Source of the DNA: Mobula hypostoma | Lineage: Eukaryota | Direction: 5' to 3' | Length of the DNA: 64,000 bases | Assembly (NCBI RefSeq): GCF_963921235.1 | Contig: NC_086097.1 | Location: 73,782,001 to 73,846,000 of the forward strand | In this document: one piece after another, positions 8,938-64,000 of the stretch | Layout of the letters: the number at the start of each line of letters is the position of its first letter | Position numbering within the stretch: position 1 is the stretch's first letter | Position numbers and translations under genes: made by a program | Notes under the pieces: model-generated | The model's input: only the letters and a program-made list of their open reading frames with translations | What the model was told of the DNA's origin: nothing | Databases searched by the model: none

Positions 8938-11900
8938 CTGTGACAAAAAGTAATAATCCGAGTTACATTGGAAACATAAAAATATATTCGAGGTATGAAA
9001 AATATATTTATCCATTCAACTGGATAACAACAAATTCAATACATCTTCTGAGCATCTTAATGTGCTTTACACAAGTATTGTGCTTTTACAGTATAGCCAC
9101 TCTGCTCTTATTATTAAGGTAGGCACGGTCACCACTTTTGTGAAGAAAATTTCAACAAAAAGGGTGATCCTTCAGTCATATCAGAAATGTTATTGAAGAC
9201 TTCAAATAGAATCTAATCAGAAAGACAGCACCTCCACACAGTAGCATTCCCTCGGAAGTGAAATATTAAAATAAATTCTCCACTACAGTCCTAGACTGAG
9301 GTTTGAACTGGGATCCTTTGCTTCCAAGGTGAGGGCACTGCCAACTGAAATAAAACAGTGTGAAGCATGCTACACTACATACATGCTGGAAAGGCTCATT
9401 TTAAAAATATCCCATGCTGTTCTGCAAACAAAAGCACAAAACTGTACCTTCTTCAATGACCCGCCCTTTCTCATCCAGCATGCCTTGAATTTCACAACCA
9501 CGCACATACACGAGTCCAGTTTGCTCGACAAATGGTTGTTTTCGGTCAAATTTTGTGCCATAAGCCAAGACTGGGCGGACAGTTATAAGGAAACAGACAT
9601 CATGTTTGCGAAGAGCTGCAGTTTGAAAAATACAACACATAAATCCAGAAATAAAGAAAAAGCATATTACGTGGCGCTTTGATTCCTCAAACACAGTCAC
9701 CACATCTGCCTAAAGATTTACTCAGTTTACCATGTTTTATTAATATGTGCTAACCCAAAAACAATTCAGAAATTTATCAATAAACACATCAGTAATTAGT
9801 CTTTGCTCCATTCAGCAAAACCAAAATTCAGATTCATTCATTCTCTTAACTTCCTCTGAGTAATTTACTGTTTATTAAAAAAAGTGTCTGGAATTGCCTT
9901 CTGATTCATGATTTCTATCCCATTTTAATCTGGGAATACTTGTACACATCCTATGCAAAACAGGAAACAATATTCCATATATCTGCTGGAAAATAAGTCC
10001 TTGGAATTACCTTCCCATTCCTCTTTGATTTCATATCGAACATTCAAGTTGATGGTTACATCTGCCCGGACTCTGGCCGGCCAGTTCTCACCGATATTGG
10101 GTTTCGACACTTCTACAATGGAGAATGTGACAATAGGTTGTGCCATTCGAGCCCAGCCACCAAAGACAACACCTCCATACTCTCCTTGCCTGCAATATTA
10201 ATAAACATATTCAGATACTAAGTTTAGGCCAGGGACTGAAACATTCTCATAGAATATTTTAGATGTTTTAAAATTCCAACAAAATGCTGGAAGAACCCGG
10301 CAGGCCAGGCAGCATCTATGGAAAAAAGTAAACAGTCGATGTTTCGGGCCGAGCCCCTTCATCAGGACTCTTAGGTGCCGCTGGCCTGCTGAGTTCCTCC
10401 ACTATTTTGTACGTGTTGCTTGGATTTTCAGCATCTACAGATTCTCTCTTGTTTGTTTAAAATTACAAATTGCTTTTCATCAGTGGACACCAAATTAAGG
10501 TAAATAAGTTATTCTGATCCACATGTTAAATTGTGTAAAAGTATATATTAAAATTTAATGAAAGAAGTGAAAGATTTGAACTCATTTTTTAACATTGTAT
10601 TCCCAGGACTGGCATCAAGATGTTTTTGAAAAAATAATACATTTCAGTGGGAGTTGCTAGTTTAAATAGGCTATAAATACTGGAAGAACATAGAACATTA
10701 TACCACAGGAAAGTAGGCAGTCGATGGAGCAAAACTGCAATCAGATGGATGGGCTGAGTGTGTCTATTTAATGCAAGAAGTATCAGGGTGATGAACTTTG
10801 AGCATGGATCAATACATAGAACTATGATACCATGGCCATTTCAGAGACTTGGCTGTTACAAGGGCAGTAATGACTGCTGGATGATCTGGGGTTTAGATGT
10901 TTCAAAGGGGACAGGAAGGGCAGTAAAAGAGGTGAGGGATAGTGTCACAGCTACAGGAGAGAAGACATTGTGGAGAGATCATCCACTGAGTCAGTGTGGG
11001 TGAAAGTTAGAAAAATGAAGACAGCAATCACTCTATTGGGAGTTTTCTATGGACCCCCACCTCCCCCAACAGCAACAGAGACATTGAGGAACAGAGCGGG
11101 AAGCAGATTTTTGGAAAGGTGAAAAAAAATAACAAGGTAGCTATCATGATGCCTTGAAGCGAAGAGCAGTGGTAGGGAAAAAAAACTTGAATTTATCAGA
11201 TAAAAAAATGTCAAATTAGTAAAATATTAATTATTAATTAAATTAATTTTGCACAAGGCTCATGAGTACAGAGAAAATGCAGACTTCTGCTTAAGCTCAA
11301 AAGTGAAACTGCTCTTATTTTGACTCTGAGGTAAACTGTGCAGTTCAATCCCATCTACTGCATGTAACTTCCTTCCATTATGAAGTGAAGTCAGCAATGT
11401 AGCGTCATCAACTATAGAACAGACTGAGAGGTGCAATTCCCAGCCCTTGTGGAGTAGACTGGGCAGCAAAACTTGCTCACACTACAGAATGGACTAGATT
11501 CTACAACTGCTTCTGAGGAAAGGACCACACATCCCATCTATCACAGTGAATAATGGGAATTAAAATTACTCCTACCATGGAGGGGACTAAGCAGTGTATC
11601 TAACACTAATGCAAAGCAGCAATGTGATTCTGACCCACTGTGGTTCAGACTTGTCTGGGTAACTCCCAAATTATTGTAGAACTGTATAGGGTAGAGTAAC
11701 ATGAACACTTATCTGCACTGTGGTGTGGGGTGAGTAATGTAACACCTGTGAGCTGTGGGAACCGTTAATGAGGGAACCATTCCCTCTGTATAACAGTTAG
11801 CTATTTTACAAATATTAATTTGGCAGCTTCAGCAGATATACAAGCATACTTAAAAGGGAAAGCAATCTGAAGAATTCAGATAAAATGTTTTCAACCAGTC

Positions 11901-14900
11901 TTAATAGTTTACAGCAGATCCAACAACTGTCAAAAACTGACTTGGAGGGAAAATGCATTTAAACACAGGCATATTAATACCCACCATGGTTTAAGTCTGC
12001 TAATTGCATCCTCGACATCCTGCCTAATTTCATATGTAGATTCCAAACGGAAGAGATTAAAATTCCTCAGCAGATAGTCATGTAGAGTCAAGAACTGTAA
12101 ATTCAGCTTCGGTAATGCAAGGCAGCCTGGCATAACAGAAACATATGGTCAAATCAGATCAGATTAGTTTGTCATATACACTAGGGTACAATGAAATTCT
12201 TTGCTTGTGTGAAGCTCAGAGAGTAATATTTTTCCTGTAGGACATGGGTTTTCAACCTAAGTGGAACCCAGCAGTGAATAAGAAATAAAAAAACTCCACA
12301 AGCGCATGATTCATCATACCTTCACCAGAGTAATATTCTGTTGGAACAATATTTTCATCCCAAATAATTTTTTCTGTGGGATAAAGGGGCATTTCATTTA
12401 ATTGTTGGATTTGAGATGTTCGCCGTTCATGTCGGGACACCTATTAAAAAGAAACAACTTTAAGTGAACAATTTCCTGCATTTAAATCATGTTGATTAAT
12501 ATTCTCATCACTGAAATACTGACCAACATCTCCAAGAGAAAATCCTTTTCATAACATGTATCCACTTCCTCAGGCAGGGTTGGCAAAAGACAAAGGTATG
12601 ATGCCACTCTGTGGAGTGTGTTGGGACTGTAATTGGGAAACAAGAATAATGTATTTTATATCCATGTAGATATGTTCACACAAGCTATGTTTGCAGAAGA
12701 ATAAAACATACAAAAAAGAATGAAGTTGACACTAGTTAACCCAGAAATATCAGCTAAAATGGGCAGAGATCACAACGTGGAACTTTGCTTTCAGAGAGAG
12801 CAGGGGAAGGTGGTGAGGGGAAAGAGCAGGAAATGGGTGACAGATAATATGCTGCTTTTCCAGCTTACTTTGTGCCTTGTTCTAACAGTGCAGTGGACTA
12901 CAGACAGATCGATCAGAATGGGATGGAGGAAGTGACTGGCAACTGGAGGCTCCTGCAGAACAAATGCATGTGAACCACATATCTCGTGAAGAGGAGATCA
13001 CCTAATGGAGTATTATACAGTATACAGTACACTAGATTAGAAGTGCAAGCAAATCTTATGGTAAGGATATTGGTTCTCTGGATAATGGGAAAGGACATGC
13101 AAAGAACAGATATGGATCTCTTGCAATTGTATGGAAAAATCGCACAAGACCTGGAATGGTTGGAGGGGATAGAAGAGTTACCCATGGAATTGTAAAGGAA
13201 ATGCTGGATGAGAAGGAAAGAAGTATATTATGGGTGAATCTTGTTGGATCTGTCAGAAATGACTAAAGATGATTGGTTGAGTGCTGAAACTGATGGTGTG
13301 GAAAGTGAGGATCCAGGGAACACTGTTCTTGCTTCATGTAGGAGTGGGGATGAGAACAGATGCTCTGGATAAAAGACATGTTCGAAAGCTCTGTTGACTA
13401 TTGATAAGAGTGGAAATCATGGTCTAGAAAGAGGCTTGGTGGGCCTGATCTGGTGTTCACTTCCTACACTCAACATTTCATGGATTTTCATGTCCCTTTG
13501 TGTTCTCTCCAAATGTGTTTGTTGAATTATCAACCAGATGAATACATCAACAGCTTATCACCATGTCAATTCTGGCCTTACCCAAATAGATCCTATCCAT
13601 TCAACAGTTAAATCTATTTTTGTATTTTAAATGCTATTCAATATCATTTGAACTCAAAGTTGTGCAGAAGCAGTTGCAGACAATTCAAGAATTTAAAAAT
13701 CACCTACCTAAGTGACCCAAATTGCCTCACAAGAGATTCTCGAGTATCAACTGCTGCCACGTTAGACAAAGCAAAATCATGTAGTTCTGGAAAATGAGCA
13801 AACGCTGCCCTCTGCAATGTAAAAGAGTAAATTTCTTCAGACATAGCAATCACTTCAATCTCATACTAGATGTCATGTATATATGGTGAAAGGGGATACT
13901 GTAAATTGAAACGAGATGTGTAGTGGAGAAAAATATGATAGAGGTGTTTAAGAGGCTCTTAAGATAGGCACATGAATGTGCAGAAGATAAAGGAAGGAAG
14001 GAACGGTTAAGTTTAGTTAGACGTTTAATTACTAGTTGGTTTGCATAAGTCTCTACAATGCTTATTTTCATTGACACAGAGAAAGTGATGTCACAACCAT
14101 CAGGAAATGCAAGCACTCATATTTAATGCATTTAAGAAAATAACTTCCTGAAAATCGAATGCATACTGCAGATATAAATCCCCAAGATATAATATAAATT
14201 AAAACAAAATAAGCTTTAAAAAAATTAATTATTTTAAGCATGTATGTAGCACAGTAGGTATTGTTGCTGTCAAAACACTAATTTGAACCTGAGCTCGGAT
14301 CTTGCCTATTGTTTTTTAAGGTGTAATTTGAATTGGTTTATTGTTTTCAAATGTACTGAGATACAATGAACAGCTTGCCCTGCATACTGTTAATATAGAT
14401 CAAGTCACTACACAGCGCATGGAGATAGAACAAAGTAAGACAATAACAGAATGCAGAATAAAGTAAAACAGCTACAGAAGTGAAGTACAGGTGAACGATA
14501 AGGTGCAAGATCATTACATGCAAGTCCCCTCTAATTTGTAATGACCAGAGTGCACAAAAAACTTGTGAAGCACTTTTTGCCCAGTGACAACAACATGTGC
14601 ACACTGAATTTTATATACAGAGGTATTCATTTTAATAGCTAGCAAAACACTGGCAATAAGAACTTTAATCTCCTCTGGCTTTGACTGTTTTCGCTCTCAT
14701 TCATCTGCACTCTCACAAAACACATGCAGCAGACCTGTAGCGGGTAATGAAGGATTTTGCACACTGTCCATATGTAACTTGCCTGCTTTAAAAAGTCAAG
14801 TTTCCAAATATCATTCCACTTCTTCCCACTTGCAAATTCTCCAGCCACTTTTGCATTGCAACAATACACACAGATAACACCAGTTTCTGTATTGTACATA

Positions 14901-19500: not shown

Positions 19501-22500
19501 CTTGTACAGACTCCGTCCTTGGAAGGTGTCACAAACTTCTACGGATGTATTTATTGTTGAAAATATCCTGACTGGTTGCAACATAGTCTGGTACAACACA
19601 TCAAATGCACAAGAATATAAGATGCTGCAGAGGGTGGCTCAATACATCATGAACACATCCCTCCCCACCATTGCTACTATCGATAGGAGGTGTTACCTCA
19701 TGAAGCCAATATCTATCATCAAAGGTGCCATGAGCCTGTGATGTTGCTACAAGTAAGCTTTTCATTGCACCTGTACATATACCTATGTAACTGTGCATAT
19801 GATAATAAACTTCAACGTTGACTTTCATACCACATCTGAATACCATTTTTTGATTTGTTAATCACCCATTTTAGAATTTATATGCACATACATAATGGGG
19901 AAAAAATCGACTTACCTCCAAATCTATCATAAGTTCAACAAATCTCTCACAATGATGAACCATATCCATGCTGACTGGCCCTATGTACAAAGTGAAAAAT
20001 ATCTGAATATAATCACGTAAAATATAGATCAACGTAAATCAGTTCATATTTTCTTACTTTCCTCACAGTGGAAGATCGCAAGAATGACTATTTCCCCAGG
20101 AAAACAATTGCGAACATGGACACTCGGGGGGGAGATGGGAAAAAGGAACATGAATGAAAAATGAAAATCACAAAATGAAAAATGCAATACTCAAGATCTT
20201 CAACTGAGATTAGCTTCAGAAAATGATTGATAACAATTGAGAGTCATGAGATCAAATCAGTTTCAATAAAAGCTCCCTCACAAATAACTAATCTTTAAAA
20301 GTGTGATGCACAGAAGTGAAACAGATCTGAGTTATTGATCTCTCATACCTGAAAACGTGAAAGATAAAAATAAAGGGTTGTTGAGCTTGGACAATAAGCA
20401 GTTGGAATATCATGTGACATTCTAGACATCTACTGTAGGAAGGATATCACAGCCATGTAAACACAACAGTGAACATTCACTAAAATAAATGTAGGAATGA
20501 GATATTCCAGTCCTGAAATGCAAGGAAACTACCCATTGCCATTGGAAACAAGAAGCTCAGCAATGGAATCAAAAGGAAGTTTCAAATTGATTATAAAGGA
20601 CACTTCAGAGTGGGCATAAAGCAGCACTTGTGACCAGCTGCAGAATCAGAGTTATTATGCTTAGTGCCTTTCACCAGTTGATATCTGAGGCACATGATAA
20701 TACCACTACCTGTGAAGCAGGGGAGAGAGAAAAGAGATTCCAGTCGATAGTTGCAGTTGAGGAACTGGTACTGCAGAGGTTATTGTGAATAAAAAGGATT
20801 CAACACTTTTTGTTAATTTTAGTTCTAAGACCAATACAAAAACACCATCCTCCAATTTATTAAGCTAAGCTGCACATGATCTAAATTTGTATGGCATAAT
20901 TTTATATTTTTAATATCAGGATTTCAGAAAAATTTAAAAGCCATTGAAAAAGAACGAAAAAATTTAAGCTAAAAATTTCAAAATTGCAACACACGAATAC
21001 ACTGAAAAACAAAAAAAAAGTTTCCAATACACAAAAGAACCTCATTCTGTACTGAATTATCAGGCCAGAACTTACTACTAGATTTGCTGCTGACATACAT
21101 CTCAAGTGTGGACTTAAAGCCATAAGATATAGAAGCAGAATTAGGCCATTTGGCCCTCTGAGTCTGCTCTGCTATTTTGGCATGGCTGATCCAATTTTCC
21201 TCTCAGCAGCAATCTCCTGCCTTCTCTCAATATCCCTTCATGTCCTGACCAATCAAGAATCTATCAACCTCTGCCTTAAATATACATAAACACTTGGCCT
21301 TCACAACTGCCTGAGGGAAAGAATTCCACAGATTCACTGCTCTCTGGCTGAAGAAATTCCTCATCATTATGCTAAAAGGACACCCCTCTATTCTGAGGCT
21401 GTGTCCTCTGGTCTAAGATTCTCCCACTCTAGGAAACATCCTCCCACATCCACGCTATCACGCCTTTCACCATTCAAAATGCTGCTGGAACGCAGCAGGC
21501 CAGGCAGCACCTATAGGAAGAAGTGCAATCTATAGATGCTTCTTCCTATAGATGCTGCTTGGCCCGCTGCATTCACCAGCATTTTGTGTGTGTTGCTTGA
21601 ACTTCCAGCATCTGCAGATTTCCTCGTGTTTGCCTTTCACCATTCAATAGGTTTCAATGAGACCACCCCTCATTCTTCTGAATTCCAGTGAATACAGGCC
21701 CAGAGCCATCAAACACACTTCATATGACAGCCATTCAATCCTGGAATCATTTTCTTGAACCTCCTTTGAACCCTCTCCAGTTTCAGCACATCCCCTCTAA
21801 GATAAGGGGGCCAAAACTACGCATAATACTCCAAGTGAGACATTACCAGGGCTTTATAAATTCTCAACATTACTTCCTTGCTTTTATATTCTGTCCTCTT
21901 GAAATGAATGCTAACATCGCATTTGCCTTCCTCACCACAGACTCAACCTGCAAATTAACCTTTATGGAATGCTGCAAAAGGACTCCAAAGTCCCTTTGCA
22001 CCTCAGTTTTTTTTGTATTTTCTCTCCATTTAGAAAATAGTCAATCTTTTCGTTTTTTTACCAAAGTGGATGACCATAACTTCCCGACACCATATTCCAT
22101 CTGCCATTTCTTTACCCATTCTCCTAATCTGTCTAAGTCCCTCTGTAGCCTCTCTACTTCCTCAAAACTACCTGCCCCACCTCCTGTCTTCATATCATCT
22201 GCAAACTTTGCAACAATGCCATCAATTCCATCATCCAAATCATTGACATACAATGTAAAAAGAACAGGTTCCAACACAGACACTTGTGTCACACCACTAG
22301 TCACCGGCACCCAACCGGAAAAGAGTCCCTTTATTCCCAGTCTTTGCCTCCTGCCAATCACCCACTGCTTTATCCATACTAGAATCTTTCCTGTAATATC
22401 ATGGGCTCTTAGCTTGCTAAGCAGCCTCATATGTGGCAGCTTGTCAAAGGCCTTATGAAAATCCAAGTACACAACATCAACCAATTCTCATTTGTCTATC

Positions 22501-28500: not shown

Positions 28501-31500
28501 AATATCCTCACCTCTAGTTCTCTCCTTTAAGTGCCAAAAGAGTGAGGAATTCCTCCTTAGTTGTAAAATCCTGGGAAGCCATTCTGACAAATACAACAAG
28601 CTGAACTGTTTGCATTAGGATTCATCAAACTGTAGTGAAAAATATTCACAGAGTGACAAGTCCTTTAACACTTGTCGATCCACGTCCTCTGACAGAGACT
28701 CTACCCTCCTTGTCACTGTTGCAGGGCCAAGCGGTATATTATGTATATGTTGTGATGTTGTTTTTGTTTTTAAAGTCATTAAAAACAGTCTCTGTGGTAA
28801 TGGCCGTTGCTTCCTTGAATAAATCGCCATCTGTAAAAGGCTTTTTGTGTTTAGCCAAAAGGTGACTTACACAAAATGATGCTTCAATAGCAGCCTTATT
28901 TTGAGCAGCATGCTTTGTGAAAAACGATTGCTGGGCCTTCAACCCAGATTTCAGCTCCTCAACCTTCCTGGCACGGATTGCGCTCTTTGGGGCGGGGGGG
29001 GGTAGGTGTTTTAAAATTTCTGGTGGTTGGTGTTGTGGTGCCGCTCCAGATTCCCTCTTTCAGTCAGTGCTTGTGTTTGGTGGCACAACATACGTACACA
29101 CTTGTCTTTCACCAAGGTAAACAGAAATTCCTCTTTCCACTGTGGATGGAACTTGTACGTTTTTGCCTTCTTTTGTGGAGCCTCTGCCATGCTGGCTAGC
29201 TAACTTGCAGGATATCATGAGCGAGTGCCATATATTGATGTTTGCGATGGTCTGTACTCTTACCTAATCTAATTGGTCACTTTGATGAAGCACAAGCCAC
29301 GCTGAAACTGCAGTGCATGGGGAAGGGGCTATACACACATACGCACTGGGCAGAAAGAACAGAACTAAAACCCTGCAACCTGGAAACAATCTCTCTTTAC
29401 AAACAGCTTTCTGTAGCGGGAGTATTGCTATATTACCATTAACCTAATTAGTATTACTTATTTTTATAATGCTCACATTACAACAGTATTTGTGTATTTA
29501 TTTTTCATTTTCTTTCAGGGATCTACTGGGAAAGTCTCAAAGATCGACCGGTTGACGACCATTAATGTAAATGGTTGTCACAGGTTACAGTTGGGATATC
29601 AATAGGATGCAGAGCTGGGCTGAGAAGAGGCAGATGGAGTTTAATCTGGAAAAAATGTGAAGTGATACAGTTTGGAAGATCAAACTAGAGTACAGAACAC
29701 AGGCTTAAAGGCAGGATTCTTACCAATGTGGAGGTACAGAACGGATCTTGGGGTCTACGTCCATAGATCCTTCAAAGTTGCTCTGCAAGTTGATGGTGTG
29801 TTTGAGAAGCCGTATGGTGTGTTGGCCTTCATTAGACAGGAGACTGAATTCAAGAGCAGTGGCGTAACATTGTAGCTCTGTAAGAGTCTGGTTAGACCCC
29901 AGATTGAGCACTCTATTTAGTTCTGGTCTCCTCATTAAAGACATGGAAGCTTTAGAAAGGGTGCAAAGGATGCTGCCTGGATTAGATAACATTTCTTGTG
30001 GGGAAAGGCTGAACGAGCTGAGGCTTTTCTCACTGAAGAAAAGAAGGATGAGAGGCAATTTGATAGAGTTAAATAAGATGCATAGATAGAGTGGATAGGC
30101 AGTGCCTTTTTCCCAGAGCAGCAATGGCCAATACCAGAGGACAACTGTAAGGTGAGTCATAGGTCATTTTTTTTTTACACACAGAGAGTGGTAGGTGTCT
30201 GGAGCACATTTCTGGGCAGTAGAGGCTTATACTAAAGGCCATTTAAGAGTCTCTTGGTTAAGCATATGGATGTTAGAAAAATAGAGGGTTATGGGCCATG
30301 TAGGAGGGAAGAGTTAGATTGATCATGGAGTAGGTTTATATAGGTTGGCACAATATCATGGGATGGAGGGGCATGTACCGTGTTGTACTGTTCTGTGTTC
30401 TAATCAATGCAATGTTTCCTTTAAAACTCAAACTTTAATATATAATAAGGCTTTGCTAAACAAGAAATGTTTAGTTGACATCAGAGAGTGAGAATATTAA
30501 CAAAATATTTTCTCAAAATGTTTTTACATCACTTATCTAACTAAGAGGAAGGAGTTTGACATGATTCTCAGTTCATGTCTCCAAAACATTAAACATGCAT
30601 TTGAAGTAAAGTTAGCATGCTCAGCTGAGGCCCCCTAATGGTGTAGGTTGGTATTACCCAGAATCAAACTGCACATTGTGAACAAAGGTTGAAAAACAAT
30701 GCTTTACAAAGTTACACTGATCAAACTCACAAATATAACTGATCATAAAAAAGCCTCCTTACAGATGAAACAGAATTCAAAAAATCACAAAAGTCAGCAG
30801 TGAAATCAGAATACAAGTCATTGAAGCACAATACACAAAGCCCAAAAATGCCAGATGAATACAAGCTAATTAGTCAACTCTTATCAATTGATGGATGACC
30901 CAACTTCTCGTTTATCTACATTCTCTACCTTTAAAACCAAACTAAAATCCAACACAAAACCTGGACATGCTGCAAGCTTCACATTGGATATAATGCAAAA
31001 TTATATCCGGGTATTCCCTAACCGGAAACCTTGGATGAATTATGAGGTCAAGTCCCTTTTAAAGGCTAGAGCTGCAGCTTTTAGGTCCGGGGATACCAGT
31101 CACTACACGGAATCCAGGCGTGAACTCCGGAAAGCCATTAAGGGCGCCAAGAGGCAATCGAGCCAAGTCCGAAGCCCAGGCTAGCTGAAGGGATGCCAGT
31201 AGACTATGGCAGGGTCTAAATGAGATCACTGGGCGCAAAGATAAGGCTGGGAATATCAATAACTGTGGCGCTTCTCTTCCTGATGAACTTAATGTATTCT
31301 ATGCAAGATTCGAACAGAAGAGGCGCATCCCGCTCCCTCCGGATGAACAGGACCTGGTGGCATCAAGATTCATCGTCACCCAGGAGGACGTTAGAAGGGC
31401 GTTCCTGAAGATAAATCCAAGGCCCAGATGGCGGCCCAGGACGGGTTCTCCGGGCCCATGTAAGCAAGCTAGCTGGAGTGTTCGCTGACATCTTCAACTG

Positions 31501-34500
31501 CTCCTTGCTTCAGTCTAAGATCCCCTCGTGTTTTAAGAAGGCAATGATAATCCCAGTGCCGAAGAAGAGCAAGGTGGCATGCCCGAATGACTATCGACCT
31601 GTGGCTCTGACATCAATTGCTATGAAGTGCTTCGAGAGATTGGTTGTGGCACACATCAACCACAGCCTACTGGTCAACCTCGACGCTTTGCAATTCACCT
31701 ACCAGAGCAACAGGTCAACGGCAGATGCCATCTCTCTGGCCCTACATTCCTCCTTAGAACACCTGGGGAATAAAGACGCATACGTAAGGCTCCTTTTCAT
31801 TGACTACAGCTCTGCCTTTAATACCATCATTCCAAATAAACTGATTCCTAAGCTCTGGAACCTGGGCCTTAGCACTCAGATCTGCAGCTGGATCTTCAAC
31901 TTCAGACAGGACCCAGGCTGTAAAAATAGGGGACAAGCTCTCCTCTACAATCACTCTGAGCACCGGTGCCCCACAAGGTTGTGTACTCAGCCCCCTGCTG
32001 TACTCACTGTACACCCATGATTGTGTAGCCAAGTTTCCATCAAATTCAATATATAAGTTTGCTGATGACACTACAATTGTAGGCTGTATCTCGGGTAATG
32101 ATGAGTTTGAGTACAGAGAGGAAATTAAGAACCTGGTGGCATGGTGCGAAGGCAATAACCTATCCCTCAACATCAGCAAGACGAAGGAATTGGTTGTTGA
32201 CTTCAGAAGGAGTAGCGGACTGCACAACCCAATTTACATCGGTGGTGCGCAAGTGGAACAGGTCAAAAGCTTTAAGTTCCTCGGGGTCAATATTACAAAT
32301 GGCCTGACTTGGTCCAACCAAGCAGAGTTCACTGCCAAGAAGGCCCACCAGCGCCTTTACTTCCTGAGAAAACTAAAGAAATTTGGCCTGTCCCCTAAAA
32401 CCCTCACTAATTTTTATAGATGCACCGTAGAAAGGATTCTTCTAGGATGCATCACAACCTGGTATGGAAGTTGTCCTGTCCAAAACCTAAAGAAGCTGCA
32501 GAAGATCGTGAACACGGCGCAGCATATCACACAAACCAATCTTCTGTCCTTGGACTCACTTTACACCACACGCTGTCGGAGCAGTGCTGCCAGGATAATC
32601 AAGGCCACGACCCAGCCAACCGGGAGAAGGTTCAGACGCTTGAAGACTCGTACAGCCAGCTTTGGGAACAGCTTCTTTCCAACTGTGATAAGACTGCTGA
32701 ATGGATCCTGACCCAGGTCTGGGCTGTACCCTCCAAATATCTGGACCTGCCTCTCGGTTTTTTTTGCACTACCTTACTTCCCATTTTTCTTTTTTCTATT
32801 TATGATTTACATTTTAAATTTTTAATATTTACTAATTTTAACTATTTTTAATATTTTTAGTATTTGTAATCCAGGGATTGAGAAGTGCAGAATCAAATAT
32901 TGCTGTGATGATTGTACGTTCTAGTACCAATTGTTTGGCGACAATAAAGTATAAAGTAAAATTAACAGTTAATAATTAAACTTGTTCATAAGTTGGAGCT
33001 ATGAATTCCAGTGCATAATAAACAGGGTTTAATACATTATGTGATGATTGCAAATCAGTGGGAGTAACGGAGCCAATGTGTGCAGTCTTAATGTTCAATG
33101 TATAATCATGCCAGCAATAATTTCAGTTAAAGATTTTGCTATTCCCATTTCTGGCATCTCTAGATTCATCATTCATTCCTTTGCATGCCCCATTGCATCA
33201 TTCGCTTTTCACCAACATCCCTTGCCACTTAATCTCCTCTGCCTTCCCCAGCATCTTATTTATTTTTATCTCTGACTTTTTCCAGCTCTGATATATGAAC
33301 ATGGATCTGATGCTGATCTGAAGACTGCCGCAATTTCCTGTTTTAACACAAGTGACAGTAGTGTAAATTTCCAAACTACAATGACAATCACAGGTAGAAT
33401 TTAGCATAAAAAGATTACAGTTCAGTCTGGTCTTCAAAAAAGATTGAAAATTGGTCAAAAAGACTTATTTGAGGGAAGTGCCTTTAAAGAACACAATTAA
33501 GCGTCTTGGTTTTAGATTTATGCTAGGTCTTACCTTTGCTGGACACAAATTACAATAAAAATATAACATTGCACACACAATTTGAAAAGTACCAGAACTG
33601 CTTTCTATGCAGAATGAGGCCAATCACTATGCTGTGAATAAATAAAATCTGTTCCATATCAAAGTGCCCAGGCACATTTAAAAATCATGGAAATCTAAGG
33701 AGCAAAGATGTTGAGTATTAAGACAAAATATTAGGAAAAGATGATTGTTTCATACTCAAACTTACCAAGCTGTTAAAGCAGTGATCAAGAAAGACCAACA
33801 GAACAGTTTGCTCGCGTAATGTAAAATTACTTTCTTCAGCAAGAGATGCGGTCAAAATACACTTGAAGAAATAGGGAAAGTGTTCAGGCTTCTGTGTAAA
33901 TGTCTATAGTTTTAAAAAAAATAGATATTTCCTTAGGTTAAAGTTAGAAAAAGAAATAAACCATTAACAATATTGACTAAATGTGAATATAGCACTAGAG
34001 CAAGGGTTCCCAAACTTTTTTATGCCATAGACCCCTACCATTAATCGAGGAGGACTCCAAGGTTGGAAGCCCCGCATTAGAGGTAGTTCACTTCTTCATC
34101 CAGCACAGCATTTCATAAGTTAATTTAAAATTCAACTTGAGATATATTTTTTCTATTTGCAAAACATGTGTGTTTGATATAAAAGGAACATTTCATCCAA
34201 AAATGCTCAAATGTTGATTGTATCAAGTGAAGCTGTTTCAATTATGCATATGCTAATGCAGTTACAGTACAGGCATTTCACCTTGACAAGTGTCTTTAGA
34301 ATATCTGTTGCTTTATATAGTTCTGAGTCTTCATTCACAGCTGCTCAACATAAAATGAAGTCCCCTCTAGTTCTCAAGTAAAGACAAGTGAGTGTTCTTC
34401 CAGCAGACGATAATATGCTACTTACATCAAGCTATTTATTAGGCCTGCAGTTTTATTTATTTTTAATACAGGAGTGAGAATGAGTGAAGAGTTTCTGCCT

Positions 34501-37500
34501 GCAACTGTTTCCTTTTTTCAAAATCACAGTCTGACATCTTGGAGGAGCAACGCCTCATATACCGTCTAGGTAGTCTCCAGCACCTTGGTATGAACAGAGG
34601 ATTCTCCAACTTCTGATAATTCCCTCCCCCTCCCTTCCCCTATCCCTAAGTCACTCTGCCCCCTCCCCCAGCTGCCTACCACCTCCCTCATGGTTCCGCC
34701 TCCTTCTACGACCCATTGTGTTTTCCCCTATTCTTTCTTCACCTTTCCTGCCTATCACCTCCCTGCCTCCCTTCCCCACCCCTTTTTCTTTCCCCTTACT
34801 GGTTTTTCACCTGGAACCTACCAGCCTTCTCCTTCCCACCCTCCCCCCACCTTCTTTATAGGGCCTCTGCCCCTTCCCCCTACAGTCCTGACGAAGAGTT
34901 CCCACCCGAAACGTCGACCAATCTTTTCCACGGATGCTGCCCGACCTGTTGAGTTCCTCCAGCGTGTTGTGAGTGTTAGTCTGACATCTTCACAGCATCA
35001 CTCCTTAGTACAGCAGTGTGCGATTACAGACCTTTGGAATTCAACTATGATGCTAACAGAAGGATAGGTAGCAGCATTGCTTTATACAAACAGATAACAA
35101 ATGCCTCTTACCTCCCACGCAGGAACGTTTTCTCGAAACTTTTCATTTACCATACAGCAAATGGACATTAGGTAAGCGTTACTGGATACAGCTGGGGAGT
35201 AATTTGGCCAGAGATAGTTCTCTAGATACTGGCTGTCCATTTTGTAAAAGAAGAACAAATTGGATGATTAAGGGTTTTAGAAATGGTGCAAGCATGTTAA
35301 AAACTTGAAAAAGAAAAATCTAAAACAACAAAAAAGTACCTGAATTCAAGCAGCATAATTTTTCTAATGGCAAATCTGGGGGAAAAAAAGCAAATATTCA
35401 AGAAATTTGTAATTTATAAACATGTTTCTTTAGCCTCACTCTCATGATTACCAAAATTTACAAAGTCCCAGATTCAAATTTTCCAAGCGCCCAAAGAAAC
35501 ATTTCATTTACCTTCTCTGAACATATGAAATGCTAAGTGGTTAAGGTTTAAATCCTTAATTTCTCTTCAAATGTAGATAAATAATACTGAATTAAATCCC
35601 ACTTCAAAAATTTATATCTTTTACTTTCTGGTCAGCCAAAAGACAATATACTTTAATGTGGCTTTTCAATAGAAAAGAATTGGATTTCATGAAACACAAG
35701 ATGCATGATTCACTCATATCTCTATCTGATATCCGAAATCAGAAGAATGGGTGGTGCATTTTTGTGCCATGGTTTAAATTCTCATAGAAATGTGCAAGCT
35801 GCTAAACTTGTCTTATGGTTATTTGGCAATATCAATTATCTCCCATCTTGCCCTGTTAGTTAAGTAAAAGGTAGAAATTCATTTAATTTCTCTCGAACTC
35901 ATTGTTTAAAGGGGACACCTGGTATTAAAACAAATAAATAAGACCATAAAACATAGGAACAGAATTATTCAGCCCATCTTCCTGTAACCCATTTTCCTGT
36001 CTTTTCCTTGACACGCTCATTAATCAAGAACCACTGTTTGCTTTAAATATGCCCAAAGACTTCACCACCCAATGGCTGATGAAATTCCTCCATCGCTGTT
36101 CTAAACAGACATCTCTCCAGACTCTGTCCTAGACCCTACCACTATAGGAAGCATCCTTACCATGTCAACTCCATCTCGGCCTTTCAATATCCTATAGGTT
36201 TCAATGAGATCTCCCTTCATTCTTCTAAACTCCAGTGAGTACAGGTCCAGAGCCTTGTGACACTTCCTTAACCCTTTAATTCCCAGGATCATTCACATAA
36301 ACCTGCTCTTGTCCATTTCCATAAAAGCATCATATTACAGATTATGGAAAGATGAAACATAATCTGATGAAAGATCAAGCTGTAATTCTGTTTTTGTCAG
36401 TAGGGAGAGCAGAACTGTTGAGCATTTCAAGCACTATATTTAAATGGACCATCAGGTGTAACAATAAAATTGATTATATTCCATTGTAAAAACATGGGGG
36501 CAGATCTTCCTGGCCCTGACCTACAATCAGGATTTGTCTTTCATGGCTCCTGCCCACTGTCCTCGCCTGGAGCAGAATTGGAGAATTAATCTCCTTAACC
36601 AACTGTACCCAGAATTTGGACAGTAAGCTCACAAGTACTGTAGCGGTAAGGCCCTGCTCCCTTTTCTGATATTCATACACTTTTGAACATTTAAATTGAT
36701 GCAAATAAAATTATGAAAAAAAACATCATAGGAACACATCAAAGCATTCAACTGAAATTAAACACTAGAAATAATAACTTGTTTCCTCAGGATCTCAATC
36801 CAAGGATCTCCAATGAGATTGATGAAGTATGTAAAGGATTAATACAGTTGGTTAAGCATAGCAAACAACAGGAATTCTGCAGATGCTGGAAATTCAAGCA
36901 ACATACATCAAAGTTGCTGGTGAACGCAGCAGGCCAAGCAGCATCTATAGGAAGAGGCGCAGTCGACGTTTCAGGCCGAGACCCTTCGTCAGGACTAACT
37001 GAAGGAAGAGTGAGTAAGAGATTTGAAAGCTGGAGGGGGAGGGGGAGGGGGAGATGCAAAATGATAGGAGAAGACAGGAGGGGGAGGGATAGAGCCGAGA
37101 GCTGGACAGGTGATAGGCAAAAGGGGATACGAGAGGATCATGGGACAGGAGGTCCGGGAAGAAAGACAAGAGGGGGGGTGACCCAGAGGATGGGCAAGAG
37201 GTATATTAGGAGGGACAGAGGGAGAAAAAGGAGAGTGAGAGAAAGAATGTGTGCATAAAAATGAGTAACAGATGGGGTACGAGGGGGAGGTGGGGCCTTA
37301 GCGGAAGTTAGAGAAGTCGATGTTCATGCCATCAGGTTGGAGGCTACCCAGACGGAATATAAGGTGTTGTTCCTCCAACCTGAGTGTGGCTTCATCTTTA
37401 CAGTAGAGGAGGCCGTGGATAGACATGTCAGAATGGGAATGGGATGTGGAATTAAAATGTGTGGCCACTGGGAGATCCTGCTTTCTCTGGCGGACAGAGC

Positions 37501-40500
37501 GTAGATGTTCAGCAAAGCGGTCTCCCAGTCTGCGTCGGGTCTCACCAATATATAAAAGGCCACATCGGGAGCACCGGACGCAGTATATCACCCCAGTCGA
37601 CTCACAGGTGAAGTGATGCCTCACCTGGAAGGACTGTTTGGGGCCCTGAATGGTGGTAAGGGAGGAAGTGTAAGGGCATGTGTAGCACTTGTTCCGCTTA
37701 CACGGATAAGTGCCAGGAGGGAGATCAGTGGGGAAGGATGGGGGGGACGAATGGACAAGGGAGTTGTGTAGGGAGCGATCCCTGCGGAATGCAGGGGGGG
37801 GGGACGGAAAGATGTGCTTAGTGGTGGGATCCCGTTGGAGGTGGCGGAAGTTACGGAGAATAATATGTTGGACCCGGAGGCTGGTGGGGTGGTAGGTGAG
37901 GACCAGGGGAACCCTATTCCTAGTGGGGTGGTGGGACGGTGGAGTGAGAGCAGATGTACGTGAAATGGGGGAGATGCGTTTAAGAGCAGAGTTGATAGTG
38001 GAGGAAGGGAAGCCCCTTTCTTTAAAAAATGAAGACATCTCCCTCATCCTAGAATGAAAAGCCTCATCCTGAGAGCAGATGCGGCGGAGACGGAGGAATT
38101 GCGAGAAGGGGATGGCGTTTTTGCAAGAGACAGGGTGAGAAGAGGAATAGTCCAGATAGCTGTGAGAGTCAGTAGGCATCAGTTAGTAGACATCAGTGGA
38201 TAAGCTGTCTCCAGAGACAGAGACAGAAAGATCTAGAAAGGGGAGGGAGGTGTCGGAAATGGACCAGGTAAACTTGAGGGCAGGGTGAAAGTTGGAGGCA
38301 AAGTTAATAAAGTCAACGAGTTCTGCATGCGTGCAGGAAGCAGCGCCAATGCAGTCGTCGATGTAGCGAAGGAAAAGTGGGGGACAGATACCAGAATAGG
38401 CACGGAACATAGATTGTTCCACAAACCCAACAAAAAGGCAGGCATAGCTAGGACCCATAGGGTGCCCATAGCTACACCTTTAGTTTGGAGGAAATAGGAG
38501 GAGCAAAAGGAGAAATTATTAAGAGTAAGGACTAATTCCGCTAGACGGAGCAGAGTGGTGGTAGAGGGGAACTGATTAGGTCTGGAATCCAAAAAGAAGC
38601 GTAGAGCTTTGAGACCTTCCTGATGGGGGATGGAAGTATATAAGGACTGGACATCCATGGTGAAAATAAAGCGGTGGGGGCCAGGGAACTTAAAATCATC
38701 GAAAAGTTTAAGAGCGTGAGAAGTGTCACGAACATAGGTCGGAAGGGATTGAACAAGGGGTGATACAACAGTGTCGAGGTATGCAGAAACGAGTTCGGTG
38801 GGGCAGGAGCAAGCTGAGACAATAGGTCGGCCAGGACAGGCAGGTTTGTGGATCTTGGGTAGGAGGTAGAAACGGGAAGTGCGGGGTGTGGGAACTATAA
38901 GGTTGGTAGCAGTGGATGGGAGATCCCCTGAGCGGATAAAGTCGGTGATAGTGTGGGAGACAATGGCCTGGTGCTCCTTAGTGGGGTCACGATCGAGGGG
39001 TAAATAAGAGGAGGTATCCGCGAGTTGTCGCTGTGCCTCGGCAAGGTAGAGGTCAGTACGCCAGACTACAACAGCACCCCCCTTATCAGCGGGTTTAATA
39101 ATAAGGTTAGGATTAGTGCGGAGGGAGTGGAGAGCAGAGCGTTCCGAAGGAGTGAGGTTGGAATGGGGACAAGGTGCGGTGAAGTCGAGACGGTTGATGT
39201 CCCGTCGGCAGTTGGCAATAAAGAGATCCAGAGCAGGCAGAAGACCAGAGCGGGGTGTCCATGAAGAAGAGGAGGGTTGAAGACGGGAGAAGGGGTCATC
39301 AGTGGGGGTGGAAGAGTCCTTGCCGAAGAAGTAGGCTCGGAGACGGAGACGGCGGAAGAAAAGTTCCGCATCATGGCGAACACGGAACTCACTGAGGTGT
39401 GGGCGAAGGGGGACAAAGGTGAGGCCCTTACTGAGAACAGAGCGTTCTGCCTCCGACAGTTGAAGGTCGGAGGGGATGGTAAAGACCCGGCACGGATGAG
39501 AGCTGGGATCAGAGGGGGGAGGGGGGAGGCTGGGGGTGTCAGTGGAGAGGGGAGGGTTGGGGTGAGAGAAAGATGGAGCCTCTGAGGGCCCAAGAGCTGA
39601 CGGTGGGATCTGAGGAAGACGGGGCTGCGGAGTGGTGGTGGGTGAAGGGGAGATGGGAGTCACACTAGCAGCACATAAAGACCCGGCCTGGTGTTCAAGG
39701 CTGGAATCTTGAGAGCTGGGATCAGAGGGGGGAGGGGGGAGGCTGGGGTGTCAGTGGAGAGGGGAGGGTTGGGGTTAAGCATAGCAGCCCGTTTTTCTGC
39801 AAGAAACCGCTGATAATCAACAGATGTGCTAATCTTGCTATTAAATGCTGAGCAATATTTCTTCTTGTAGTTAAGCCAGTTAGTGCTTCAAGGTCCTTGT
39901 CTCTTTGTACTGTCCTGCACATAGATAAGACCAGCTCCAGCCTGTCCTGTGTGGGTGTATGTGAGCAACTATATCTACCCTGCAAGAGGAACTGCCAGTT
40001 GGTTGGTGGACTGAGCAGGAACAGTCTTTAAGTGACTTTATCCGGATTTGACTTCCACAAGATGAATACTCTTAGATCTCACACCACACCTGACCCAGTG
40101 CAAAATCTGACTACTGACTCCCCAGCATGACTAGGTGGAATCTAGAACATTTTAGTAGTACATGTTCAGACTGGGACTTCTGTAAGAATGTCTGAATGCT
40201 CATGGGCAGCTAGAAAAAAGATCAGCATTTTATCCTGCTAAATGCAACGATTTTGACAATGTGAAAAGAGGTTTGTGACAATAAGTAATATGCTTGTAGA
40301 TTTTGAAGATATATAATATAAAATATACAAATTGCACAAGGAAAAGATACTTCACACAAACAGGTAATAACTTACTTTGTCTTTACAATTTCTTTCTCAT
40401 AGACATCTTCAATGACCTTTAGCAACAGAGGAAAAAAGGGAAAAATACAGAATGAGCTGATGTATTTGTAATTTCTCATTATAAAATCTTCATTTTGTGA

Positions 40501-47530: not shown

Positions 47531-48274
47531 TTAGTTTCTCCAATGTTCTTTCTTCACTGACAAATAATTGCTCCTCATTCATTTTCAACCTTTTGGTGTC
47601 CATTATTTACAGACTTTTTTTTGTCTTTTCTGAAGGCAGATATAACATATTTTTATCTTAGACAAATCTACATTTGTTAAGCTTTGCTTTTTTATAGTCA
47701 TAGCTTTTAATGTAAGTTCCCAATCCACTATAGCCACCTCAGTCTTTATACTTCCACAGTTCCCTTTTAGATTTAAGACCAAGCTTTCAGATTAATTAAA
47801 TCAGCTTTAATTTCAATATAACTTGATATGATCATTCTCTGTATCTTTACAGGTTTAGACCATTGCTGGGATGTGAAGTCCATGAGCTGCACCCTACAAT
47901 ACTGTGAATGACCAGGCTGCATGAAGTTTGTTTTCTGTCTACAATGGAAGTAGCAAGTTGGCTTTAATTGTATCATGTAATGTCTGCTACTGTTTAAAGT
48001 GACTAACCAATGACTCCCGCTTTACATCTGGTATTAGAAAACCTGATGGAAAGAGCATCCTGGAGTTGAGTAGTAATGGGAAACACCTTGGGCTGTTCCA
48101 CTGCGTTGTCTGTATAATAGTCATGCGCCTTGAATTGGAAACATAGCATTACGCCTTCATTATCACTGTGTCTAAATCCTGATGGAACCTACCCCACAGA
48201 ACTGCTTGACTACCTTCACCAGAGAGATTGCAGCAGTGCATGAAGGCAACTAATAGCCATTTTAATGTCACTTT

Positions 48275-48830
48275 CCATTCTCATGTTTGTCCACAGCCTC
48301 CTCTATTGCCAGGTTGAAAATAGGCACAGATTAGAGGAATAGCGCCTCATATCTTCTTAGTAGTCTCCAACCTGATGGCATGAACATCAATTTCTCCAAC
48401 TTCCAGCCTCCTCTGTCCCTTTTGTTGTCCCCCTAACCCACTGACCCAATGCTCATCTACTTCAGCCCCACCCTCTCCATCTCTGCATCACCGCACATTT
48501 CTCCCTCTGGTTTCCGCCTCACCTACTTCCCTCTATTCCTCCCACTGACCTCTCCTATCAGATTCCATATCTTCTTCAACCTTTTGTCACTTCCATCTAT
48601 CACCTCCCAGCTTCTTGGGTCTCTTCCCCCCTCCCCCACCTGGCTATCACCCTCCTCACCTGGATCCAACTATCTCAGCCAGCTCTTGACCCAAATCATT
48701 CCCCCTCTACCTTTTTATACTGGCCATCTCTACTCTTTCTTTCCAGTTTTGAGGACGTCCCCACCTGAAATGTCGGCTGTCCACTCCCTCCACTGATTCT
48801 GCCTGACCAGTGGAGTTCCTCCAGCCTTTT
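48275..48830 (+). mobile_element. Old Penelope 3' fragment
   Basis: AGTCTCCAACCTGATGGCATGAACATCAATTTCTCCAACTTC ([14 protein letters not shown]), pyrimidine-rich UTR, decayed hammerhead. Confidence 0.75.
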
Positions 48831-49409
48831 ATTGTGAGACAGCTCATCACTGCCCTCCTAAAGGTAATAAAGGATGCAAAGGAAATGCTAGCTTTTCCTG
48901 TGACATCCAGATACCAAGAATAAATTTGAAAAGTTGTGCATATTAATTTTGCATCCTGTCATTGTAGGGCTCCTCTTCATGTTTCTCTGTTGCTATCAAT
49001 TCAACCTTGTTCCGGATTTATTTTCAAAACAGAATATTTAATTCTTTCCCCTATAAGGCTTTTCTTCAAAGATATTTGCATTTTATTTGTTTTTCCTTGG
49101 GTTCAGCTATAATAAATATGACTTTCCTTTGCATAATTAAGCTTAGTAAAACCCTCTCTGCAGCAGAAGCTATTTCCTGTGGTACAGTAAAGGAAACAGA
49201 GTATCTTGACTTAAGTAACCAGTGAAACAGAGTCACCATACTCCCATTCTCATCTCTCTAACCTGCACCCCCTGCATTGACCTAATGAAGCAGTTCACCT
49301 TCAAGAAACCACACTACATTTGCAGCAAGGCAAATTACAGCCTACCAGACCCAACATTCACTTCCATAATTCCAGTGAACAATTCAGTTATTATAATTAC
49401 AAAATCCAT

Positions 49410-54600: not shown

Positions 54601-55202
54601 CTTGAGCATCAGGTACATCAGAGACATTCACAAATGTTGAATTTGCTAATGGTTTTGGTAGCTAGGTCTGAATGCACAGCTTAGCAAACTGCAAAGACTT
54701 TTGTCACCATTTCTGTGGTTCCAGGCAAAAGATCTCAATCCATTTCCTGTCCATGACTGTCCATTTCCTTCCTCAGTTGCTACCAGAGTTCCTCCAGTAG
54801 TTTGTACATTGCTTCAGATTCCAGTATCTGCAGTCTCTTATGTGATGGGAGCTTGCTCCACCTATAGATACAGAAGGCTTGCTGAGCAGATTGGAGAATG
54901 ACTCCACTGGAATGTCCACTCAAGGAAACTGCGGTGCTTGTGTGAAGATGAGCATCAAATTTTGTCAGCTTAAATTTCTGCAAAACTCTGGCTGTTGCTT
55001 CCTCACACAGCGAAGTTTACCTCTTCAATAACTCTATATTTGAACCCATTCATTCAGCTTTCCACACTTAGTACTGAAGCCACGGGAAACTCCGTCCTCA
55101 TCTTTCTTTACCAGGCTGAAGCTTTTGCTGTAGCTGGCTACACCTTTGTAATCTAGAGCCTCTACTCCACTGCTCAACTTTGTCAGACTGTGCTCTAGAA
55201 AG

Positions 55203-61342: not shown

Positions 61343-64000
61343 TGTGGCGGGCATTCAGTCCATGATAATAGAGGCAAAAAGCATGTTTATCTCAACTGCC
61401 GTTTTTATTGTGACAAGAACAATAATAGACAGAGCACAATGGCTCAGTGACAATTAACTCAGTCACATACAGTCAGGGGAGGTGAAGATTACACACCTCA
61501 GTTACATAGACACACACGTGAATAACTGTATAGCCCGAGCAAAAATAAATGAAGTTGAACATCTCGCTATAACTCTACTGAACACATACACCATGAGTGC
61601 ATTTGAAAACAAGAACAATAAGTAGCGCTGTCTGCTAGGAATGCTGGGACAAGCTGTTGACCACTGCCCCCACCTGGGGGGTCAGCCATTCCTGGCAACA
61701 CCAGAGTCTACAACAAAGTCCAAAAGTTCTGGTTGTGGTTGACACTGCGTCTGGGGCGCTGAGGGATGTCTGTAGCACCCCCCCCTCCACCAGGGGAGGC
61801 ACTGTTTGGTAAGCCAAGAGGCAGGGCACCTGGAGTGTCACCTCCTTCGCCCTGCCTTGCTGGGTCGGTGGTGGTCAAGGACTGATATGGTGCTAGCCAC
61901 TCCCAGTGCAGCACGACCGCCTTCCGCTGCTCAGGCAGCCGTGACTTGTATATCACATCAGAGGTGTGGTCGGGCGCCTCTCTCAGCCCCTTCCAGTGGC
62001 TTCCGAGCTTGGTGGATCGTCCCTTCTTCTGGGTGGCACAGTAGACACATACTTGGTTCCCCCCAGTAAAGTCCTGACCCAGCTGGGGGCATCGCAAGCC
62101 CGTTCTTGACGGCCGCTAGCTGCGCTTTGGTTCTGCCAAGCCACATCGTGAACAGACGGCCGGTGCCCCCTGAGGTGCTGCAGGTACTCCAACCTGGCCT
62201 CCCCAGGAATCTCTGGCTCAGGAGGAGGCCAAACACCAGATCCACCGGCGTGCACAGCTCCCGCCCGAACATGAGCACAGCCGGCGTACATCTGGTGCTA
62301 GGGGGAGGGGGAGGTGGCAATCCCAATCAAGCTGGTGCTTGTTGACGGGAATGGCAAGTTGCGTAGCCAGCATGGGGTTAAAACATTCCAGCAGCCCCTC
62401 ACTTTGCGGGTGCAGGGGGGTGGTCCATGTTTTGGTGATTCCCAGCCACCTGCAGACCTTGCCAAGCACTTGCACGACAAAGTTCTCAGGGGCGTGAAGA
62501 CGGCAGAAGAACTCCTCTACAAGTCTCTCAGCGATTGTAGTAGTAGTCCTCTAGTCCGGCACTGTGTACGCCTCAGACCATTTTGTGAAGTAATCCAAGG
62601 CCATGAGAACGTAGTGGTTCCTATCATCAGTGCAGGAGAAGGGGCCCAGGCACCAGCCCGTGCATCACGGCGTGGAGTCCCTGGGGGAACCGCCAGTTGC
62701 AGGAGATGTCTGTCGTCCATCGCCATGAAGAGCAACCTGTGGTGCACCTCCAGCATGCGCCATTGAGACTGGGGTTTGGTGTCTGGATCCAGGGCGGAGA
62801 CCTCAGCCCACTCCAGCTGCTATTCCACCCTCAGCCATCCCCCCATCCGGGCCAGCACAGAATCACTCTACTGCTCGCTGCACAGCTGCTAGTGGTTAAT
62901 GGTGGGGGGGGGGGCTCTACTTCGCCGCCGGCTGCCACTGCTTTTTGCCCCTGGTTCCGCTCCTTGAAGCAGCGACAGTAGCGACACTCAGTGACCTCAC
63001 AGGGACGGCGAGAGAGGGCATCAGCATTGCCATGGTGCCCTTCAGCCACAGCCAAGAGCTCCCGGCTGGTGACACAATAGTTGCGTTCAGGGCGGCTTAG
63101 GGTGCGGCTGAAGTGCACTGCAGTGTGTTCTCCTTGGTCCCTCTCCCGTGACGTCACTGTGCCAAGCCTCCCCTCCCCCTCTGCTGGCGTCTGTGTCAAC
63201 AATGAAGGGACATGCTGGATCAGGGTGCACCTGGGTGAGCGCAGTTCAGAGCTGGTCAAAGGTGGCAGCACAGGTGAAGGGCCTCCATTTTGGCGAACTG
63301 GCAGTGGTGGCGAAGTCCTTACTAAACCGGTGGTAGTGTGATGCCAACCCCAGGAAGCTGCGAAGCTCGGAGACATCGGGGGTGGGGGGGTGGGGGGGTG
63401 GGTCATTCCCTGACTGCCATTACCTTCTCAGGGTTGGTTGCCACTCCTTCTGCACTCACCTTGAGCCCCAGGAACTTGATCTGTGGGCGTAGCAGGCAAC
63501 ATTTTGTGAGGTTGAGGTGCAGGTTCGCCTGGCGGATGGTGGCAAAGGTCTCTTCCAGGTTCTGCAGAGCATCAACAAAATGGCGGCAGTGTGCAGCAGG
63601 TGATCGTCCAAATAGATGACACAGCAACTCCGCAGAATGTGAGCCAGCATCCTCTCCAGCAACCGTGTCTCGAATGTGGCCGGGGCGTTTAACAGGCCAA
63701 ACTGCATTACCCAGAAGTGCCACAGCCCTTGACCAATGGTGAAGGCAATCTCAGGTTGGGCCTTCAGGGCCAGTGCGACCTGCCAATAACCACAGCGGAC
63801 ATCGTGAGCACTGAACCAGGTGGAACCCACGATACAGTCCAGGGCATCATCAATTTGGAGCAGCAGATAGGAGTCCCTCTGGGTCATGGCATCCACACAG
63901 AACCGTCATGACCCAACTTTCTTCTTGACCAACATCGCTGGAGCTGCCCACGGGCTGTCGGATGACTCAGTGATACCAGCCGCTGCCATCTCTTTGATCT
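61343..64000 (-). mobile_element. Degenerate canonical Ty3/gypsy element (RT-RH-INT-3'LTR), runs off the right edge
   Basis: SPWAAP, GYWQV, MQFGLLNAPATF, IYLDD; ERNYCVTSRELLAV, HGNADALSR; TTPLHPQSEG; purine tract followed by a probable LTR at ~61663-61343 ending ACA. Confidence 0.85.

Follow-up and report, generated by a model that had tools for sequence, protein, structure and literature searches.

A hammerhead motif that lies in the sense strand of a host intron raises the question of whether it cuts the pre-mRNA that carries it. An earlier note on this locus had concluded that such a motif, in a young Neptune element between coding exons 3 and 4 of AQR, could cleave the pre-mRNA of a spliceosomal helicase. 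We approached this question through the sequence of the motif, its host element, its relatives and its predicted folds, using the whole 64-kb stretch of DNA around it, hereafter the window. On the minus strand of the window, the motif and its parts are as follows:

36960..36997, minus strand: minimal type I hammerhead motif, by sequence reading and by the descriptor of PMC4209133 Fig. S7
36997-36993 with 36964-36960, minus strand: helix I arms, UAGUC/GACUG, 5 bp, outer pair U-G
36992-36986, minus strand: core box CUGACGA
36985, minus strand: extra A after the core box
36984-36973, minus strand: helix II, GGGU/GCCU closed by loop CUCG, 4 bp including two G-U pairs
36972-36969, minus strand: GAAA box
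36965, minus strand: C17, with the predicted cut at 36965/36964

Helix III is the palindrome ACGU, without a loop and followed by C17, and for helix II a 3-bp register fits as an alternative. The strand, core boxes, helices I and II and loopless ACGU are all as the earlier note had read them between 36997 and 36960, and together they match the published descriptor, which combines CUGANGA and GAAANNUH boxes with stems I and II of 3-7 bp (PMC4209133 Fig. S7). This descriptor matches twice in the 64-kb window, at 36992 and 10365, and produced one match in 300 windows randomized by dinucleotide-type shuffles. Both marks of the minimal type I hammerheads of Penelope-like elements are present, namely an extra base between positions 9 and 10.1 (A at 36985) and a palindromic 15.2-16.2 without loop 3 (PMC4209133). 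The motif lies in the sense of the element's open reading frame, 306 nt past its stop and about 100 nt from the element's 3′ end; because the 5′ repeat is missing, the 5′ border of the terminal repeat cannot be set. The distance of 101 nt from the predicted cut to the 3′ end, as first given, applies if the whole 14-bp target-site duplication is target sequence, and since the last 3 bases of the duplication also match the family's end, the distance is 101-104 nt.

The search with covariance and motif models that the earlier note proposed gave a divided result, in that the published minimal descriptor matches while Rfam returned no hammerhead family at gathering score over the whole window, nor at E values up to 10 over 36500-37500. 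A weak Rfam match to UnaL2 (36866-36919, E 9.6) was treated as chance. The fold of the isolated 38-mer is not unusually stable relative to shuffled sequences (z = -1.24). To judge from its letters and its setting, the motif is a genuine minimal type I hammerhead signature of a Neptune-type Penelope element.

The host element and its borders comprise the following features:

36864..39772, minus strand: 5′-truncated Neptune-type Penelope-like element, 2,909 nt
36850..36863: target-site duplication, 3′ copy, 14 bp, of which the last 3 bases (minus strand) could be the element's end
39773..39786: target-site duplication, 5′ copy, 14/14 identical
38461..39501, minus strand: N-terminal and reverse transcriptase part of the open reading frame, with a DKG motif and a frameshift near 38460
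37298..38460, minus strand: rest of the reverse transcriptase with thumb, linker and GIY-YIG endonuclease, with an in-frame stop near 38183
about 37702-37678, minus strand: C-x4-C-x2-C linker, from the translation
36998..37297, minus strand: pyrimidine-rich 3′ untranslated part, with a predicted competing hairpin between its final bases and the core box
36864..36959, minus strand: 3′ end of the element downstream of the hammerhead, common to short copies in the window

The reverse transcriptase part (38461-39501) has no Pfam match of its own and is 75% identical to a bamboo-shark protein (P0121) that has an RVT_1 match, while the GIY-YIG match (E 1.6e-4, 22.3 bits) falls slightly below the Pfam cut-off of 22.6. 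The assignment to the Neptune type is supported: the order of reverse transcriptase and C-terminal GIY-YIG endonuclease, the DKG motif, the CX2-5CxxC linker and a hammerhead near the 3′ end are all shared with the Neptune clade as described by Craig et al. 2021 (10.1101/2021.04.23.441226), as is the presence of short inverted copies nearby in the window. Neptune in particular rests on the linker, which in the published descriptions marks Neptune and Nematis and is absent from Penelope and Poseidon (10.1101/2021.04.23.441226, PMC3846280), and on two indirect links, one being a relative, described below, whose motif resembles a published Neptune motif, and the other a preprint in which Neptune and Poseidon are the only ones given for vertebrates (10.64898/2026.07.22.740005). 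Departing from the clade so described, the AQR-intron copy lies in non-microsatellite DNA, has neither an adjacent inverted repeat nor a 5′ repeat, and carries an open reading frame broken twice, by the frameshift near 38460 and the stop near 38183. No 5′ pseudo-LTR and no second hammerhead were found between 36864 and 39772, and as read from its sequence the copy is unable to make its protein and has a single hammerhead only.

The description of the element as young is borne out by the perfect 14-bp duplication and by an observed/expected CpG ratio of 0.59 in the element against 0.17 in both flanks, which indicate a fairly recent insertion. The element's 5′ end (39727-39775) repeats, at 86% likeness, a segment 212 nt further in (39515-39563), a repetition that might reflect a template jump where the copy was truncated or else a repeat that the family carries internally. 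Contig depth over the 5′ flank (about 39790-40030) is several hundred, compared with about 20 for unique DNA, so the element appears to have landed beside or in another, lower-copy repeat.

The host gene is AQR. On the minus strand, the frame at 9401-9709 has matches to Aquarius in both Pfam and PDB, with sharks as the top named full-length homologues, and tblastn with shark AQR proteins placed exons over residues 1 (Met1, 42384) to 670 (8759), the remainder of the gene lying outside the window. The first five exons join into an open frame across GT-AG introns, and the insertion falls into the third of these introns:

40376..40416, minus strand: AQR coding exon 3, 41 nt
35340..35375, minus strand: AQR coding exon 4, 36 nt
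40375 to 35376, minus strand: AQR intron 3, GT-AG, 5,000 nt

Without the element, intron 3 would measure 2,077 nt. Exon borders and strand agree with the placement in the intron between coding exons 3 and 4 in pre-mRNA sense, and it follows from this position that the motif is transcribed with the intron RNA. In one sequencing run (X9), which we guess to be RNA, there is coverage of the bins with exons 2-5 and none of several unique intron bins, although no joint of exons 3 and 4 stands among the 15 joints listed for its contigs (1,777 more exist). Among the contigs listed from a related organism (B), none bridged either junction of the element or the empty site. The link to AQR itself seems fortuitous, these element tails being so numerous in the genome, and a literature search in which AQR was not used as a name returned no study of this Neptune family or of a hammerhead in AQR.

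We then asked what the motif's relatives reveal about its fold. Relatives were gathered from metagenomes by reverse transcriptase homology, and motif scans covered 80 loci (L010-L089), the best 80 of 504 confirmed. With our own descriptor, 15 of the 80 loci yielded 17 motifs in all, whereas 20 shuffled sets yielded none. The core boxes were then searched alone to avoid circularity: both helices and the palindrome accompany 12 of 28 core-only matches in the sense orientation and 1 of 4 in the antisense orientation, whereas the roughly 122 matches from 50 shuffled sets include no such case. The 11 distinct motifs show two to four pair types at each of the six helix positions counted. The covariation in helices I and II whose absence, together with missing cleavage, the earlier note had named as a refutation is therefore seen across distant relatives, and it supports the hammerhead fold at the level of the class, as far as sequence comparison reaches. 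Of the 22 loci that extend 500 nt or more beyond the endonuclease, 17 lack a downstream motif by our own descriptor, which may reflect decay, variant motifs or longer 3′ parts. The link to a published Neptune motif comes from locus L087, whose reverse transcriptase is 56% identical to that of the AQR-intron element over residues 169-323 and whose motif is two letters apart from the published Acropora digitifera Neptune motif. Three further loci have two motifs flanking the open reading frame, direct in L024 (269, 3421) and L080 (2063, 7035, with a variant helix III) and inverted in L064 (1087, 3582); this two-motif arrangement is the full form that the window copy is missing.

The term intact-looking, as applied to this copy, was correct for the core boxes and the palindrome and less so for helix II, where position 11.1 is U in the AQR-intron copy and C in the two best-preserved other copies in the window (10365 and 34888). 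The U leaves a helix II of 4 bp with two G-U pairs, weaker by about 1.9 kcal/mol in the predicted fold and short relative to the motifs of PMC4209133. We considered the U as a disabling change and rejected this reading: among the 56 rows of the published motif set, the 10.1-11.1 pair is G-C in 43, G-U in 8, A-U in 3 and U-A in 2, and the motif tested in PMC4209133 is itself one of the eight G-U rows. Our relatives show G-C in 10 of 11 and G-U in 1 of 11. As a natural variant in 8 of 56 published motifs, G10.1-U11.1 need not inactivate the AQR-intron copy.

The predicted fold depends on the sequence context. When the flanks are short, both helix I and helix II are predicted (0.92 and 0.96), whereas with flanks of 40-70 nt a predicted competing hairpin (37011-36983 on the minus strand), in which the upstream pyrimidine tract pairs with the hammerhead core box, buries that box. 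The predicted pairing of helix II in context is 0.0 in the AQR-intron copy, compared with 0.24-1.0 in 10 of 11 relatives; helix I is predicted to be lost in context in 6 of the 11 relatives too. The folding programs behind these values score neither the hammerhead core nor co-transcriptional folding and its kinetics.

These observations can be assembled into a mechanism in which the motif is a passenger of its intron. It entered AQR intron 3 in one fairly recent, 5′-truncated insertion. Since the motif was copied jointly with the 101 nt that follow it, the template RNA of this insertion was evidently uncut at this site. A helix III without a loop cannot close, so two motifs must swap strands. 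The two terminal repeats of a tandem Penelope transcript would supply such a pair (PMC4209133): the ACGU palindromes of the two copies would join as a helix III of 4 bp, the 5′ arm of helix I in each copy would pair with the partner's 3′ arm, and each core would cut its partner after C17, probably releasing unit-length or circular RNA, as the account in PMC4209133 suggests. This dimer dependence, which the earlier note gave as background, agrees with that paper as far as it describes Penelope-like elements; there a single S. mansoni motif gave no detectable cleavage and dimers and trimers cut weakly. The lone AQR copy is, by its position, transcribed as intron RNA. With no partner close by, a helix II that is weakened and a competing hairpin predicted over its core, it most likely seldom cuts, if it cuts at all; it would then be spliced out with intron 3 and have no selected role in AQR expression. 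We regard it as highly probable that this is an ordinary Neptune 3′-repeat hammerhead, carried as a passenger in the intron, that rarely or never cuts and has no selected role in the expression of AQR. We would not retain the earlier note's proposal that it could cleave AQR pre-mRNA: given the missing near partner, these predictions and the published behaviour of a monomer of this class, meaningful cleavage of AQR pre-mRNA by this copy is not supported. The counterpoints are that all core boxes and the palindrome are intact, and that the family may be abundant enough for partners to come from other transcripts.

The family is hugely amplified, as judged from summed contig depth, which in the motif's bin of one run (X1, possibly the window's own sample) is about 5e6 compared with 17-34 on the unique flanks, a measure that is not a copy number. 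At least 99% likeness was found in 77,134 of 341,951 contigs of this run, which also speaks for a fairly young element. Published counts of roughly 4,000 motifs in coelacanth and 9,000 in Xenopus (PMC4209133) appear to be far exceeded, by this judgement from contig depth. Loose contig ends pile up at 36960 in three DNA runs (287, 218 and 25 records), and contigs of other subfamilies stop fitting at this same position, the exact last base of helix I, which shows that the motif is conserved and that the sequence immediately downstream varies. DNA-pattern scans for copies of the family gave none in metagenome contigs, none in prokaryote genomes and none in viral contigs, and nine viral matches to a 19-mer were taken as chance.

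Within the 64-kb window, nhmmer with the element's 3′ end gave 11 further matches (E up to 1.3), of which 10 were aligned and the weakest left out. One other hammerhead in AQR sense matches the descriptor, 26.6 kb downstream of the motif in intron 3 and many introns later:

10333..10370, minus strand: only other descriptor-matching hammerhead in AQR sense in the window, palindrome broken (ACAU), helix II 3 bp

This motif belongs to a head-to-head insertion (10267-10464) with a 9-bp duplication, in which the minus arm opens on the hammerhead's 5′ edge (10369), 32 nt upstream of the cut. Another head-to-head mini-insertion of the same Neptune family (21478-21631) is flanked by its own 16-bp target-site duplication, the whole spanning 21462-21647; its minus arm opens at 21530, which corresponds exactly to the base following the predicted cut, and its other arm opens 6 bases further in. 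The start at 21530 is a possible trace, in sequence, of hammerhead cleavage in vivo, and it fits reverse transcription of a cleaved 3′ product, which one clean case cannot show. An old tail copy (54755-54833) likewise begins to match at the cut site; short repeats of its initial bases stand in front of it, and its junction is ambiguous. Older and more decayed Penelope-type fragments lie at 13190-13372 and 48258-48832, and other retroelement remains at 269-6354, 22041-22487, 31415-32711 and 61700-63905 comprise integrase and RT-RNase H pieces of LTR-type elements, a LINE endonuclease nested between them and reverse transcriptase fragments.

The abundance of the family opens a different reading, that AQR intron 3 is measurably cut in vivo when the motif pairs in trans with transcripts of other copies, and that splicing tolerates the cut and AQR output is unchanged. 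The intact core and palindrome of the AQR-intron copy, the very high abundance of the family, which extends to the run guessed to be RNA, and the short copy whose minus arm starts exactly after the cut, a hint of cutting in vivo, would all fit such pairing. Energies speak against it, the active dimer scoring -11.5 kcal/mol where two folded monomers reach -22.0 and the best predicted dimer -30.3 (the core being unscored), as do the hairpin predicted in context and the low activity reported even for linked dimers (PMC4209133), and we consider trans cleavage of this intron unlikely. An extension of the same idea, in which lone intronic copies generally find partners in trans, so that the family acts as a genome-wide cutter of sense introns, AQR intron 3 included, and inserts of the 21530 type are its cleavage record, strikes us as a somewhat longer shot again.

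A stronger effect on the host, in which cleavage at the motif lowers or alters AQR mRNA and the insertion thereby affects a spliceosomal helicase, is very improbable in our view. The motif does lie in sense within intron 3, non-LTR retrozymes are reported to be depleted from Xenopus introns (10.64898/2026.07.22.740005), and a fast ribozyme can abort splicing (Fong 2009, in PMC2995048). Such an effect needs a fast cut, however, and the minimal class of Penelope-like elements is slow in the published assays (PMC4209133, PMC6765202); as reviewed in PMC2995048, hammerhead cleavage within an intron left its splicing efficient, and it took a faster ribozyme to block splicing (Dye 2006, Fong 2009). 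Tail copies within the AQR span of the window, at three sense (the intron 3 copy included) and four antisense, give no clear sign of sense loss, these being small numbers. The motif moreover came with a young insertion and is no conserved intronic hammerhead of the kind found in RECK (PMC6155905). The amniote intronic hammerheads of RECK and DTNB share with it the type I form and the sense orientation in a host intron, but are described as highly conserved and canonical-like with tertiary contacts, whereas the AQR-intron motif is minimal, dimer-dependent and part of a young transposon (PMC6155905). The closed helix III of the monomer-competent RECK type is replaced here by a helix III without a loop, and the young age of the insertion argues against conservation at the orthologous site.

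Hardly credible, finally, is the reading that the family's conserved letters are mainly a non-catalytic signal, such as a binding site for the reverse transcriptase/endonuclease protein, and that the ribozyme never cuts: Cervera and De la Pena left functions other than cleavage open (PMC4209133), Naiad elements are reported to proliferate without hammerheads (10.1101/2021.04.23.441226) and the core of the AQR-intron copy is predicted to lie within an alternative hairpin, but relatives keep the catalytic boxes, the extra base, G10.1 and the palindromic helix III while helix letters change, as would be expected under selection for hammerhead catalysis. Being a reading of the family, it leaves the verdict on AQR unchanged.

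The reading of the motif as an ordinary intronic passenger places it in a well-described class. Minimal type I hammerheads occur in Xena, Poseidon and Neptune elements, with thousands of solo copies in vertebrate genomes, and a single 3′ motif in a 5′-truncated element, as here, is among the forms reported (PMC4209133). Non-LTR retrozymes likewise carry a type I hammerhead related to Penelope terminal repeats, but as described they are short non-coding tandem repeats, whereas the present case is a single motif ending a protein-coding element (PMC7229834; 10.64898/2026.07.22.740005). Table S1 and Fig. S3 of PMC4209133 include no cartilaginous fish, and a 2026 preprint samples one; its supplements may already list this Neptune family (10.64898/2026.07.22.740005).

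On its own, the AQR-intron motif matters little, being one more copy of a described motif. The large young family to which it belongs would permit statistics on the strand bias of intronic copies, on 5′ ends at the cut site and on selection in the helices. If trans cleavage of intronic copies proved true, it would constitute a new route by which a transposon acts on host pre-mRNA.
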